A stretch of 32,000 bases of DNA from Isorropodon fossajaponicum endosymbiont JTNG4 (GCF_016592615.1 NZ_AP013043.1:150001-182000), one strand, 5' to 3'; shown: positions 1 to 32,000, counted from the first letter of the stretch. The notes: a model not told the origin generated them from the sequence alone. Made by a program: numbers and translations.

Positions 1-604
1 GTTCACGGCGTACGAATTTGACAATCGTGTCATCAAATACATCACCACCTACGCGCAGTGAGTCAGAATATACAATGCCATTTAGTGACATGATTGCAAT
101 TTCAGTTGTGCCACCGCCAATATCAATAACCATAGCACCTGAGGCCTCTTCAATTGCCATGCCCGCACCCAGTGCTGCTGCCATTGGTTCCTCAATTAAA
201 TAAACATCACGCGCACCTGCACCGACAGCGCTTTCTTTAATAGCGCGACGTTCAACTTGAGTTGCACCACAAGGCACGCAGATAAGCACTTTAGGGCTGG
301 GTGAAAAAAAACCAGAACGCAACACCTTACGAATAAAGTGCTGTAACATTTTTTCAGTAATTTTAAAATCAGCAATAACGCCATCTTTCATCGGCCTGAT
401 AGCTTCAATAGAGCCAGGTGTTCTACCTAGCATATTTTTAGCATCTTGACCTACAGCAATGACAGTTGATTCTAGCGACCCTCTGTCGTTATAAATGGCA
501 ACTACTGATGGCTCATTAAGTACCACAGCACCATCCATATAAATTAATGTATTAGCCGTGCCTAAGTCGATAGAAAGACTTTGACCTTTTAAAAAATCAA
601 ACAT
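1..604 (-). CDS. mreB: Rod shape-determining protein MreB, N-terminal ~201 codons; the 3' part runs off the left edge
   Basis: Minus-strand translation from ATG at 602..604 reads [25 protein letters not shown]...[22 protein letters not shown]...[18 protein letters not shown]..., nearly collinear with E. coli MreB. It is open to position 1. The ORF track misses it because there is no stop inside the window. Confidence 0.93.
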
Positions 605-694
605 AAAAATTCCCAGTTAAGTATTCGTAAAATAAAGAGATATAATACTATAAATAATCAGTAAAAATTAAGCAATAATTAACGCCTTATAAAT

Positions 695-2185
695 ATGAAA
701 ATTAAGCAAAAACATGTCATAGAAAGCATTTTTAATGCCTTGCAATATATTTCTTATTATCACAGTCCTGATTTTATTCAGGCCATGACCAATGCTTATG
801 AAAAAGAAACTCACAAGTCTGCAAAAAATGCCATTGCACAAATTCTTATTAATTCAAAAATGGCAGCCTTAGGTAAGCGTCCAATGTGCCAAGATACTGG
901 CATTGTCAATGTGTTTGTTGAGGTAGGTATGGATGTCGTTTGGGTGGCTGATTTATCATTAGAAGACATGATTAATGAAGGCGTTCGTCAGGCATTTACC
1001 TATGCAGATAATCCTCTTAGGGCATCGATTGTAAGAGACCCTCTATTTACTAGGGTGAACACTAAAGACAACACACCGGCAGTTATTCATATGAAAGTTG
1101 TTAAGGGCAATCAACTTAATTTTATTGTGGCAGCCAAAGGCTGTGGTTCTGAAAATAAGGCAAAATTTAGCATACTTGCACCAGATGATAATATTGTTGA
1201 TTGGGTGCTAAAAACCATACCAACCATGGGTGCTGGTTGGTGTCCGCCAGGTATGATTGGTATTGGCGTTGGTGGTACAGCTGAAAAAGCTATGCTAATG
1301 GCAAAAGAAAGTTTGATGGAGCCTATTGATATTCAAAATATTGCACAAAAATCAAACCAAAGTAACCTTGAAAGACTGCGCCTTAAGTTGTTTGATAAAA
1401 TTAATTATTTAGGTATTGGTGCGCAAGGTTTGGGCGGTTTGACAACGGTACTAGATGTCAAAATTAAAGACTACCCAACTCACGTCGCCTCTCAAGCAGT
1501 GGCAATGATTCCTAATTGTGCAGCGACACGTCATTTACACTTTTCACTTGATGGCTCAGGTGTGGCGCAAATGCCACAGGTAGATATGGACAGTTATCCT
1601 CAATTAGAGATGGATTATGCGCAATATAAAAAAATTGATTTAAACAATTTAACACGCAAACAAATGACTCAGTGGCATATGGGTGATACCTTGTTATTAA
1701 CAGGCACAATTATTACCGGGCGAGATGCAGCACATAAACGCCTTAAGCAAATGCTTGATAATGGAGAAGGCTTGCCAGAGGGTGTAGATTTTGACAATAA
1801 ATTTATTTATTATGTTGGTCCAGTGGACGCTGTTGGTGATGAAGTTATTGGTCCAGCAGGTCCTACTACCGCTACGCGTATGGATAAATTTACTGATATG
1901 ATGTTGGATAATACCAATATTTTAGGCATGATTGGTAAGGCAGAACGTGGCGAGGCTACTACGCAAGCTATTAAAAAACACAAGGTCACGTATCTTATTG
2001 CAGTAGGTGGTGCAGCTTATTTAATTTCTAAGTCTATTAAAAAGGCTAAAAAAATTGCATTTGAAGAGATGGGCATGGAGGCAATTTACGAATTTGAAGT
2101 TAAAGATATGCCAGTTACAGTTGCAGTTGATACTCAAGGTCATAATATTCATAGCATTTTTCAAGATATTCAGATAACTCACTAA
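695..2185 (+). CDS. Class I (Fe-S dependent) fumarate hydratase, fused alpha/beta type
   Basis: 496-aa intact ORF. MCQDTGIVNVFVEVG and GIGVGGTAEKA are typical of the Fe-S hydro-lyase tartrate/fumarate alpha region. The C-terminal part (LLLTGTIITGRDAAHKRL...GPAGPTTATRMD) is typical of the beta region. Confidence 0.88.
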   Translation: MKIKQKHVIESIFNALQYISYYHSPDFIQAMTNAYEKETHKSAKNAIAQILINSKMAALGKRPMCQDTGIVNVFVEVGMDVVWVADLSLEDMINEGVRQAFTYADNPLRASIVRDPLFTRVNTKDNTPAVIHMKVVKGNQLNFIVAAKGCGSENKAKFSILAPDDNIVDWVLKTIPTMGAGWCPPGMIGIGVGGTAEKAMLMAKESLMEPIDIQNIAQKSNQSNLERLRLKLFDKINYLGIGAQGLGGLTTVLDVKIKDYPTHVASQAVAMIPNCAATRHLHFSLDGSGVAQMPQVDMDSYPQLEMDYAQYKKIDLNNLTRKQMTQWHMGDTLLLTGTIITGRDAAHKRLKQMLDNGEGLPEGVDFDNKFIYYVGPVDAVGDEVIGPAGPTTATRMDKFTDMMLDNTNILGMIGKAERGEATTQAIKKHKVTYLIAVGGAAYLISKSIKKAKKIAFEEMGMEAIYEFEVKDMPVTVAVDTQGHNIHSIFQDIQITH

Positions 2186-2260
2186 GTGGGTTGCTAGCGT
2201 TTAAGTAGATCCGTCTTTTTTTAAAGACAACTCAAGTACTTTAGAAAAATAGTCTTGGCG

Positions 2261-2266
2261 TATAAT
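2261..2266 (+). promoter_or_regulatory. Probable -10 box (TATAAT) for rnpB
   Basis: Perfect TATAAT ends 6 nt before the predicted 5' end of the RNase P RNA (GAAGTTGG at 2273). No convincing -35 was seen. Confidence 0.45.
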
Positions 2267-2272
2267 AACGCC

Positions 2273-30646: not shown

Positions 30647-30657
30647 TTGAAAATTAA

Positions 30658-30684
30658 TTGAAAGTAGATTTATTTTACTATAAT
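30658..30684 (+). promoter_or_regulatory. Possible sigma-70 promoter for hemJ (TTGAAA, 15-nt spacer, TATAAT)
   Basis: TTGAAA lies at 30658..30663 and TATAAT at 30679..30684. The 15-nt spacer is shorter than optimal. A GGAG ribosome-binding site precedes ATG 30742. Confidence 0.35.
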
Positions 30685-30741
30685 GGGTGCTTTGAATGCT
30701 GTATGTTTAACCCAAAGGGGCTTTAAAAAAGTGGAGATTGT

Positions 30742-31164
30742 ATGTTGTGGATAAAAGCTTTTCATATTATTAGTGTGATTACTTGGCTTGCAGCGCTATT
30801 TTATTTGCCGCGTCTTTTTGTTTATCACTCAATGAGTAAAGACAAACCTAGTATTGAACGTTTTAAAGTGATGGAGCGTAAGCTTTATAAAGGCATTATG
30901 ATGCCGAGCTTTATCCTAGCTAGTGCGCTAGGATTATGGATGACTATTGAAAGTTGGGCATATTATTCAACTCAATATTGGCTGCATGTTAAATTATTAT
31001 TGGTAGTATTGTTGATTGCACACCATTTTTATTGTGGCTATTTAGTGGGTGTTTTTAAGGCTGATAAAAACACCCACTCTCATATATTTTATCGTTGGTT
31101 TAATGAGTTTCCTGTGCTGATATTGGTGAGTGTTGTTATCCTAGTTGTGGTTAGGCCGTTTTAG
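30742..31164 (+). CDS. hemJ: Protoporphyrinogen IX oxidase HemJ (UPF0093/CopD-like family)
   Basis: MLWIKAFHIISVITWLAALFYLPRLFVYH is the characteristic HemJ N-terminus. 140 aa with about 4 TM segments. Confidence 0.85.
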   Translation: MLWIKAFHIISVITWLAALFYLPRLFVYHSMSKDKPSIERFKVMERKLYKGIMMPSFILASALGLWMTIESWAYYSTQYWLHVKLLLVVLLIAHHFYCGYLVGVFKADKNTHSHIFYRWFNEFPVLILVSVVILVVVRPF

Positions 31165-32000
31165 TTATTTTTGCGTTAACTTTAAGTAACTTTCAGCCAA
31201 TGCTTCGTAGATTGGTGGCGTGGATATTTGTTTAGACACCCAATTGGCGATAAAGGCAATAATCAGCGCTGGAATGAGTAAATTAAGTGCATTTGTCATC
31301 TCTAAAATAACAAATGCACTAGTCAGTGGCGCTCTAATAACAGCACTTAAGTAAGCAACCATCGCCATAATGATAATAATTTGCGGGCTGATTTGTGAAT
31401 AATAATGCCCCACTTCACTACCAATACTAGCACCAATAGAAATACTAGGCATGAACAAACCACCAGGAATGGTGGAGGCTAGAGAACTTAGCGTTGATAG
31501 ATATTTCATCACAAAAAAATCACCACCCAGCTGATGTCCAGCTAACATTAATAACACTTCTTCACGACCAGAGCCTGCAATTTGACCTTTAGAAAAGTAG
31601 TTGAATAACGCAATAATTAAACCTAATATTAAGGCAACCACGATAACTTTGGTTTTGGTGTGCACCATGAATTTTTTAATTAAGTAAAGAATGGTTTTTG
31701 AGAATAAACCACCCAAAATGCCAGAAAATATCGCTAATGGTAGTAGTTGCCAAATTAATGTCAAATCAATAAAATAAGCTGACATATCACTTAAGTAGAC
31801 ATCATTACCACGATATATAATTGCCAATAAGTAAACCAATCCACCCATGATGGCGATTAAAACCAGTGCTTGTTTTTTGAGTTGACGACCTATCTCTTCA
31901 AAGCTAAATAAAAAACCCGCAATTGGTGCATTAAAGGCGACAATAAGCCCAGCACTACCACCAATTGCAATAAGTGAATGGATAAGCAGTCTGCGTTTGA
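31165..32000 (-). CDS. ClC-family voltage-gated chloride channel/antiporter, C-terminal part; the 5' part runs off the right edge
   Basis: The frame is open from position 32000 down to the stop at 31165..31167. It reads ...IAIGGSAGLIVAFNAPIAGFLFSFEEIGR...GGLFMPSISIGASIG...RAPLTSAFVILEMT, which matches conserved ClC segments. Confidence 0.85.
   Translation of the reverse strand, partial: KRRLLIHSLIAIGGSAGLIVAFNAPIAGFLFSFEEIGRQLKKQALVLIAIMGGLVYLLAIIYRGNDVYLSDMSAYFIDLTLIWQLLPLAIFSGILGGLFSKTILYLIKKFMVHTKTKVIVVALILGLIIALFNYFSKGQIAGSGREEVLLMLAGHQLGGDFFVMKYLSTLSSLASTIPGGLFMPSISIGASIGSEVGHYYSQISPQIIIIMAMVAYLSAVIRAPLTSAFVILEMTNALNLLIPALIIAFIANWVSKQISTPPIYEALAESYLKLTQK

Follow-up and report, generated by a model that had tools for sequence, protein, structure and literature searches.

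Gene content, clade and reference relatives

We analysed the 32,000-nucleotide stretch NZ_AP013043.1:150001-182000, the whole of which is referred to here as the window (positions count from its first letter), and the broken genes that lie in it. Open reading frame (ORF) listing together with Pfam, NCBIfam and Rfam scans yielded ~34 loci in the 32 kb, at a GC content of 37%, and bore out the gene names assigned by a first-pass annotation that had been made from the sequence alone. Twelve of the ~34 loci (35%) are broken, close to the one third estimated at that stage, and these 12 genes hold 41 disrupting lesions in 12.64 kb, corresponding to 39.5% of the window. Read from position 1, the order of genes and features is as follows:

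mreB (cut by the window edge), class I fumarase, RNase P RNA, a 70-amino-acid (aa) signal-peptide ORF
dctM, dctQ, dctP, prmC, rhodanese, an Rnf/Nqr-type membrane subunit, an HTH_3 regulator
clpB, trmL, a NodB-type polysaccharide deacetylase, an outer membrane protein (OMP)-like gene
fmt, argH, a thioredoxin-like protein, hemC, phhB, a two-transmembrane (2-TM) protein
a small HlyD-like protein, an OEP/TolC-like protein, a second thioredoxin-like protein, ftsY
msrP, msrQ, two M16 peptidases, a GGACT protein, a Na+:neurotransmitter symporter family (NSS) transporter
a 3.6-kb DUF3683/FAD/Fe-S oxidase, hemJ, a CLC channel (cut by the window edge)

The ArgH protein of the window is 84% identical to that of a Candidatus (Ca.) Thioglobus pontius metagenome-assembled genome (MAG), the top identity among the matches listed in a GTDB scan, and the matches of DctM, the oxidase and the deacetylase are likewise SUP05-clade proteins, at 65-81% (Bathymodiolus symbionts, Ca. 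Thioglobus and Thiodubiliella). On the strength of these protein matches, the window is assigned to a gammaproteobacterium of the SUP05/Thioglobaceae clade. Exact-match searches with its ClpB and HemC proteins gave no record, and a scan of JGI metagenomes with the lineage-specific 439-aa OEP protein (OEP439) turned up no relative. Four relatives or groups of relatives, all of which keep the gene order of the window, served for comparison:

L090 (Logan SRR12077200): 91-92% nucleotide identity, covers window 8138-23236; the nearest relative
L081-85 (Logan SRR120081xx): 88-90% nucleotide identity, covers window 516-8637
L086 (CP125320.1, a 1.52-Mb genome): 88.5% nucleotide identity, covers window 17077-31139
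L087 (Logan SRR30757748): 86-88% nucleotide identity, covers window 9572-16089

Among these relatives, an intact orthologue is present for every broken gene except the OMP-like gene, for which full-length but more distant homologues (P0362-P0369) served as reference. The broken genes were aligned over their full length to intact syntenic orthologues (from L081, L086, L087 or L090) at 79-96% nucleotide identity, the OMP-like gene at the protein level, and lesions were called from nucleotide alignments read in the reference frame together with tblastn frame maps. Two further loci, L001 and L002, were dropped as references because they are too distant and carry no msrPQ, NSS, oxidase or deacetylase gene in the stretch compared.

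Lesions of the twelve broken genes

Alignment to intact orthologues of close relatives, the check that the first-pass annotation had proposed, confirmed the breaks: each of the 12 genes it had named is disrupted with respect to its orthologue or homologue. The 12 loci and the references against which they were read are:

2920..4173, minus strand: dctM pseudogene (TRAP large permease), 91% nucleotide identity to the intact 426-aa DctM of L081 (P0001)
4185..4660, minus strand: dctQ pseudogene (TRAP small permease), against the intact 158-aa DctQ of L081
4667..5769, minus strand: dctP pseudogene (TRAP solute-binding protein), against the intact 368-aa DctP of L081
6567..7171, minus strand: periplasmic rhodanese pseudogene, against the full-length L001 copy (218-aa open frame) and a 122-aa L081 ORF
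11367..12413, plus strand: polysaccharide deacetylase (NodB-type) pseudogene, against the intact 343-aa gene of L087 (P0241)
12456..12961, plus strand: OMP-like pseudogene of a 165-200-aa family with C-terminal Phe, against homologues P0362-P0369
16799..17075, plus strand: phhB (pterin-4a-carbinolamine dehydratase) pseudogene, against the intact 94-aa gene of L090
17078..17753, plus strand: 2-TM membrane protein pseudogene, against intact orthologues of 225 aa (L090) and 223 aa (L086)
21155..22094, plus strand: msrP pseudogene (periplasmic methionine sulfoxide reductase, Mo subunit), against intact L086 and L090 copies (317 aa each)
22045..22677, plus strand: msrQ pseudogene (haem b membrane subunit), against intact L086 (206 aa) and L090 (191 aa) copies
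25625..26979, plus strand: NSS transporter pseudogene, against the intact 458-aa gene of CP125320.1 (L086)
27001..30646, minus strand: DUF3683/FAD_binding_4/FAD-oxidase_C/4Fe-4S/CCG oxidase pseudogene (3.6 kb), against the intact 1226-aa P0121 of CP125320.1

The fragments of dctP, dctQ and dctM match PF03480 (DctP), PF04290 (DctQ) and PF06808 (DctM), lie adjacent to one another and follow the order of the intact TRAP operon of L081 and L089. In dctM, an insertion of 4 nucleotides (nt) at ~3827 and a deletion of 1 nt at ~3810 leave a 17-nt out-of-frame stretch with a TAA at 3820-3822, and two in-frame deletions of 21 and 9 nt, which were not polarised, accompany them. An 8-nt tandem duplication at ~4282 puts the last ~30 codons of dctQ out of frame, with loss of the normal stop, and the gene also has a 9-nt in-frame deletion. 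No in-frame change was seen in dctP, which carries four frameshifts (a +7 tandem duplication at ~5716, -14 at ~5654, +1 at ~5285 and +2 at ~5086) and shows three frame switches in its tblastn match. The sole lesion of the rhodanese gene is a -1 change in a T8/A8 homopolymer at ~6917, owing to which the N-terminal part with its signal peptide (7171-6890) is read in another frame than the rhodanese domain (6926-6570).

Five disrupting lesions were called in the deacetylase (+1 at 11440, -2 at 11592, +1 at 12171, CAA>TAA at 12035 and CAG>TAG at 12372), in addition to a 12-nt in-frame tandem duplication at ~12388. Further +5/-4 indels and extra stops that appeared in a pairwise alignment of this gene were rejected as artefacts of a divergent segment, on the basis of a three-way alignment with L090. 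The OMP-like gene (window 12386-12997) belongs to a family (P0362-P0369) whose members carry a signal peptide, share the conserved motifs GEFFF and HCG and end in a C-terminal Phe. Its homologues match frame 3 up to ~12845 and then frame 2 over 12839-12958, reflecting the loss of 1 nt behind an A6 run at ~12840. A further deletion of 12 nt, which keeps the frame, costs the last strand 4 residues. L087 lacks the entire segment, and the nearest recorded homologue (P0361) is also only a fragment. A Pfam search returned no significant family for the OMP-like gene, the 2-TM protein or the 70-aa ORF.

The single lesion of phhB is a -8 deletion at ~17013, beyond which the final ~20 residues are readable in the next frame, and the adjacent 2-TM gene has a +4 tandem duplication at ~17505 and a CAG>TAG change at 17637, next to in-frame changes of -9 and +3. 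The msrP and msrQ fragments match PF00174 (Oxidored_molyb) beside PF01794 (Ferric_reduct-type), as expected of a putative MsrPQ system, and the corresponding pair is intact in L086 and L090. Four frameshifts (+1, +1, -17, +1) fall in the first ~135 nt of msrP, followed by CAA>TAA at 21672, and all of them are identical against the two independent intact references (L086 and L090). Whichever reference is used, the msrQ gene shows TGG>TGA at 22231 and 1 nt inserted in a T run (~22151-22157). It also has a 1-nt indel near its 5' end (~22103-22108) that reads as -1 against L086 and as +1 against L090. Frameshifts of -19, +1, +1, +1, +4 and -1 and a 9-nt in-frame deletion have scattered the tblastn match of the NSS transporter across all three frames, and the oxidase holds nine frameshifts (+2, +1, -1, +2, +2, -1, +2, +1, +2), CAA>TAA at 28423 and in-frame deletions of 21, 12 and 12 nt. 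Per-gene numbers are thus roughly those first reported, with one site each in dctM, dctQ, rhodanese and phhB, four lesions in dctP, six in the NSS transporter and ten in the oxidase.

As a side observation on the pseudogenes as a whole, small insertions (~26 events, ~67 nt) are no rarer than deletions (~21 events, ~181 nt). Many of the insertions are tandem duplications of 2-12 nt, and the net length change is negative.

Mutation, sequencing artefact and recoding

The 41 lesions are confined to the 12 broken genes, whereas the ~19.4 kb of coding sequence around them contains none, a distribution that has a probability of P ~1e-17 if errors were uniform over coding sequence. Roughly half of the indels have no run of at least four identical bases next to them, many span 2-21 nt (among them -8, -14, -17, -19, +2, +4, +7 and +8) and several are tandem duplications, and the nonsense changes are C>T or G>A in six of six cases (CAA>TAA, CAG>TAG or TGG>TGA). 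No lesion of the window is common to L090, L086, L087 or L081. The relatives carry intact copies, and the split architecture that the first-pass annotation had weighed against its own proposal was not found among them. Furthermore, when codon changes in msrP, msrQ and the 2-TM gene were assigned to the window branch by comparison with L090 (sister) and L086 (outgroup), these three genes pooled showed 21 non-synonymous and 23 synonymous changes, compared to 32 and 117 in intact genes (Fisher p=0.001).

Because the lesions are confined to these genes, because their spectrum is one of non-homopolymer and multi-base changes, because constraint is relaxed on the window branch and because sister lineages carry damage of their own, we regard the 12 loci as real pseudogenes, save for rhodanese and the OMP-like gene, whose breaks would need read data for confirmation. 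The gene fragments would be non-functional. If the lesions were instead sequencing, assembly or consensus errors in intact genes, as in an unpolished long-read assembly, the 1-nt indels that lie in or beside homopolymers (rhodanese T8, msrQ T7, msrP A8, oxidase A6, and the OMP-like gene after A6) would find a ready explanation. The confinement of 41 of 41 lesions, the many multi-base indels and nonsense transitions, the raised non-synonymous to synonymous ratio of the broken genes and the similar decay of other genes in independent assemblies of sister lineages all argue against such errors, which we consider very improbable as an account of the whole.

An even smaller probability attaches to the idea that the interruptions are read through by recoding (an alternative genetic code, selenocysteine or programmed frameshifting) and the proteins still made. 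The dctM and msrP genes do each appear as two same-frame ORFs split by one stop codon, a pattern that such recoding would produce. However, the stops are a mixture of TAA, TAG and TGA, relatives carry ordinary CAA, CAG and TGG codons at the stop sites, the dctM stop sits in the +4/-1 shifted stretch, and most lesions are frameshifts of many sizes without a common slippery motif, while the intact genes of the window terminate normally with all three stop codons. An alternative code or read-through for the same-frame dctM and msrP fragments was considered in its own right and ruled out by the lesion spectrum.

Timing of the decay

The first-pass annotation had taken the differing lesion counts as a sign of very different stages of decay, with inactivation spread over time. 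The counts do not support this reading, since gene length explains them: lesion number correlates with length across the 12 broken genes (Pearson r=0.89), density ranges from 1.6 to 5.2 per kb with a mean of 3.2 per kb, and heterogeneity of density was not detected (Monte Carlo chi-square p=0.91, or 0.79 when conditioned on at least one lesion per gene). The oxidase, with 10 lesions, stands at 2.7 per kb and is no denser than phhB (~3.5 per kb, from 1 lesion in 285 nt) or dctP (3.6 per kb). Lesion counts that follow gene length at homogeneous density are therefore not evidence of staggered inactivation. They are as expected if selection was lifted approximately simultaneously from all 12 genes, with low power for the short ones.

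Pairwise dN/dS against the relatives of 88% identity is 0.07-0.22 for the pseudogenes and 0.04-0.20 for intact genes, and the overlap indicates that the pseudogenes were therefore functional for most of the divergence from these relatives (dS ~0.4). The window and L090 diverge by ~8-9% of nucleotides, and the window branch since their split has a length of 3.2% per site. As no lesion is common to L090, all lesions in the genes that L090 covers therefore post-date that split.

It is possible, if rather unlikely, that the genes were inactivated one by one over a long period, the oxidase, NSS transporter and dctP being old and dctM, dctQ, phhB and rhodanese recent. Relative-rate tests with distant outgroups show an excess of replacements on the window side for the oxidase (55 vs 31; p=0.013) and the deacetylase (38 vs 20; p=0.025), both p values being uncorrected for multiple tests, and no window-side excess for dctP, dctQ, dctM or the 2-TM gene. 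With a dN/dS of 0.068, dctM is on a par with the genes under the strongest constraint. These comparisons give a weak hint that the oxidase and the deacetylase may have died somewhat earlier. On the other side stand the proportionality of lesion number to gene length, the homogeneous density, the missing correction of both relative-rate p values, and the confinement of lesions in L090-covered genes to one short branch.

Parallel decay in sister lineages

The 15 kb common to the window and L090 allow the two sisters to be compared gene by gene. Six genes are broken on the window side (deacetylase, OMP-like, phhB, 2-TM, msrP and msrQ) and six in L090, namely the deacetylase, the OMP-like gene, the argH-adjacent thioredoxin-like gene, the HlyD-like gene, the OEP gene and the second thioredoxin-like gene. 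The argH-adjacent thioredoxin-like gene of L090 (trx157; L090 7802-8277, corresponding to window 15371-15850) has +7 and +1 frameshifts, and its HlyD-like gene (HlyD158) has two nonsense codons. A 406-nt deletion takes the 5' end of the OEP gene (OEP439) together with the adjoining 3' end of the second thioredoxin-like gene (trx167), which also carries four 1-nt frameshifts (the HlyD-OEP-trx167 block lies at L090 10200-12063, corresponding to window 17763-20055). The window copies of all four genes are intact. Where both sisters have broken the same gene, they have done so differently: the OMP-like gene of L090 is disrupted by +4 and +2 changes, and the lesions of its deacetylase are entirely different from those of the window. 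Both genes were therefore intact in the common ancestor.

Damage and loss of genes are also found in L081 and CP125320.1. The L081 counterpart of the HTH_3 regulator (L081 ~330-870, corresponding to window 7830-8087) contains two 1-nt insertions, with no gene called, and the L081 rhodanese (L081 1508-1690, corresponding to window 6934-7171) has a 56-nt N-terminal deletion that splits off a 31-aa ORF, damage independent of the break in the window copy. In CP125320.1, the CLC chloride-channel gene is missing between the PALP gene and hemJ (L086 9412-9477), a clean deletion of a gene that is kept in the window (31168-31998) and in L088 (8226-9500), and searches of this genome with DctM and the deacetylase gave no match. 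As read from these alignments, decay is lineage-specific and runs in parallel in the window, L090 and L081.

Several of the genes broken in the window are absent from more distant SUP05 genomes: msrPQ from L001, L002 and L088, the NSS transporter from L088, and phhB from L002 and L088. Loss mostly concerns accessory genes of the clade. The first-pass annotation had proposed a functional theme for them (uptake of organic solutes, periplasmic repair, envelope modification and an accessory oxidase). That theme proved loose, and a description as mostly accessory in the clade fits better, given the absence of msrPQ, NSS and phhB from other SUP05 genomes.

On the L090 branch, two genes without lesions show raised non-synonymous change compared to the window branch, with 10 non-synonymous and 2 synonymous changes in trmL (1 and 11 on the window branch) and 16 and 40 in clpB (2 and 30 on the window branch). 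This could reflect general relaxation in L090 or errors in the Logan contigs.

Intact neighbours and other features of the window

The neighbours of the broken genes are intact, as had been reported for clpB, ftsY, argH, fmt, hemC, hemJ, trmL, prmC and fumarase, all full length and free of frameshifts, and for mreB. Intactness was judged over the parts alignable to a relative, and for mreB over its visible part. The intact genes are:

8314..10872, minus strand: clpB, 852 aa, end-to-end TIGR03346 match, no indel against L090 over its full length
695-2185: fumarase, no frameshift
5766-6563: prmC, no frameshift
7168-7809: Rnf/Nqr subunit, no frameshift
10952-11413: trmL, no frameshift
12976-13932: fmt, no frameshift
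13932-15374: argH, no frameshift
15371-15850: thioredoxin-like protein, no frameshift
15881-16795: hemC, no frameshift
17763-18239: HlyD-like protein, no frameshift
18236-19555: OEP protein, no frameshift
19552-20055: second thioredoxin-like protein, no frameshift
20088-21044: ftsY, no frameshift
22662-25273: two M16 peptidases, no frameshift
25284-25619: GGACT protein, no frameshift
30742-31164: hemJ, no frameshift

Two of these genes have altered ends. The stop codon of prmC has changed from TAA to GAA (window 5766-5778), so that the protein gains 4 codons and now abuts the dctP start, and the second M16 peptidase has a CAG>TAG change at 25271, eight codons ahead of the ancestral stop, which leaves it within the natural length range (430 aa in L088). 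Both changes are probably harmless.

Between fumarase and dctM lie two further features:

2273-2613, plus strand: complete bacterial class A RNase P RNA (Rfam RF00010, 293 bits, model positions 1-367)
2701-2913, plus strand: 70-aa ORF with a signal-peptide-like N-terminus (…NIQSILIVMLLSISANGYA…)

Antisense translation of the RNase P RNA yields spurious ORFs of 47-63 aa. The 70-aa ORF has no homologue in any relative locus compared, and it could encode a lineage-specific small secreted protein or be a remnant. The ORF is carried by a ~230-nt segment (window 2656-2884) that is missing from L081-85. Family and repeat searches of the window found no insertion sequence (IS) element or long repeat, consistent with the absence of IS elements noted at first pass.

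Probable reductive genome evolution and known systems

Taken together, these data make it very probable that the window comes from a SUP05-clade lineage undergoing reductive genome evolution, in which 12 genes have been released from purifying selection. The pseudogene density of the window, in genes as in bases, is far above that of free-living bacteria. In the course of events that we propose, genes that are mostly accessory in the clade would have been freed from purifying selection and inactivated by spontaneous mutation, in the form of small slippage insertions, tandem duplications, 1-21-nt deletions and GC>AT nonsense transitions, with essential neighbours remaining under selection. Decay set in after the split from L090, where the comparison can be made, and is taking an independent course in several sister lineages. 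Accessory uptake, periplasmic repair, envelope and redox genes would be drifting into pseudogenes that have not yet been deleted.

Several observations weigh against this interpretation. Rhodanese is the weakest of the pseudogene cases, as a homopolymer miscall could explain its -1 change at ~6917, and the break in the OMP-like gene likewise hangs on one homopolymer-associated 1-nt indel that could be a miscall. The relatives are Logan contigs of unknown quality. The dN/dS of the pseudogenes is barely above that of the intact genes, the relaxation being small and visible only on the short terminal branch. A predicted equilibrium GC of ~36%, compared to the 37% observed, indicates no strong AT drive, and the window contains no IS elements or repeats, contrary to the classical picture. 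AT drive and IS expansion are not obligatory for a reductive syndrome.

As to the cause, a small-population, host-restricted or otherwise specialised lifestyle may underlie the decay, and host restriction is probably responsible. The first-pass annotation had proposed a lineage becoming host-restricted or nutritionally specialised: the pattern fits genome erosion, with L090 and L081 carrying pseudogenes of their own, and host restriction itself is what we infer. Alternatively, a free-living SUP05 lineage with no restriction to a host could be losing genes specific to its niche, adaptively or neutrally, through streamlining or nutritional specialisation. This would agree with the mostly accessory nature of the lost genes, with the fact that free-living and symbiotic SUP05 differ in whether they have MsrPQ and uptake systems of the TRAP and NSS types, and with the lack of IS expansion and of strong AT drive. 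However, streamlining in large populations deletes DNA efficiently, and here dead sequence still makes up 39% of the window. Sister lineages, moreover, lose different genes in parallel (periplasmic thioredoxins, the OEP/HlyD-like pair and the HTH regulator), which is drift-like and reveals no shared selective agenda. We therefore consider free-living loss improbable, and retain reductive evolution under relaxed selection as the preferred explanation.

Vesicomyid clam symbionts of the SUP05 clade (Ca. Ruthia/Ca. Vesicomyosocius) are known to lose different genes independently in different lineages, their larger Ca. Ruthia genomes reach up to 1.59 Mb at 37% GC with inflated coding-sequence counts, and their pseudogenes contain premature stops and frameshifts (bioRxiv 10.1101/2020.02.01.930370). 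The window resembles them in clade, in GC content and in size (1.52 Mb for its relative CP125320.1), and in the parallel, lineage-specific decay seen between it, L090 and L081. It differs in that the oxidase proteins of named 'Ca. Ruthia sp.' MAGs are only 68% identical to that of the window. The decay pattern has already been described for these symbionts, and the phenomenon is known.

The SUP05 mussel symbionts, which are horizontally transmitted, and free-living Ca. Thioglobus share with the window the gene orders Rnf - prmC - dctPQM - fumarase - mreB and CLC - hemJ - oxidase - M16 - ftsY, with intact orthologues at 68-81% amino-acid identity. In contrast to the window, their genes are either intact or cleanly missing in the regions compared, with no decaying remnants.

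As in the window, many recognisable dead genes are kept beside intact housekeeping genes in the recently host-restricted bacteria Mycobacterium leprae, Sodalis glossinidius and Serratia symbiotica, which lose transporters, envelope functions and accessory redox enzymes through nonsense mutations and indels of small size. At an early stage, as in Sodalis-like symbionts of weevils, IS elements proliferate massively, unlike in the window, where no IS element was seen. The pseudogenes of M. leprae are much older and more diverged, unlike those of the window, which are still at dN/dS 0.07-0.22 relative to their relatives.

No new element or mechanism is revealed by these results. For annotation, the twelve loci are to be flagged as pseudogenes and not as 30-odd short 'hypothetical' ORFs, and lesion counts are not to be read as ages unless normalised for gene length. 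This caution and the comparison of parallel decay with L090 are the most useful by-products of the analysis. Very young pseudogenes with intact orthologues at 88-92% identity, together with a sister carrying other breaks, constitute a clean and well-controlled example. For the early phase of genome reduction in the ecologically important SUP05 clade, such material may serve for calibrating the rate of lesions, the spectrum of indels and the sequence in which genes are lost. More tentatively, the window and at least three to four sisters at 88-92% nucleotide identity (L090 and L081, and the intact references L087 and CP125320.1), each eroding a different subset of one accessory pool, might represent a little-studied SUP05 radiation with roughly clock-like decay, at ~3 lesions per kb in the window. 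If this were true, the radiation would be unusual in being without IS elements, and nature would have provided replicates in which to follow how fast, and in what order, genes are lost at the very onset of genome reduction.

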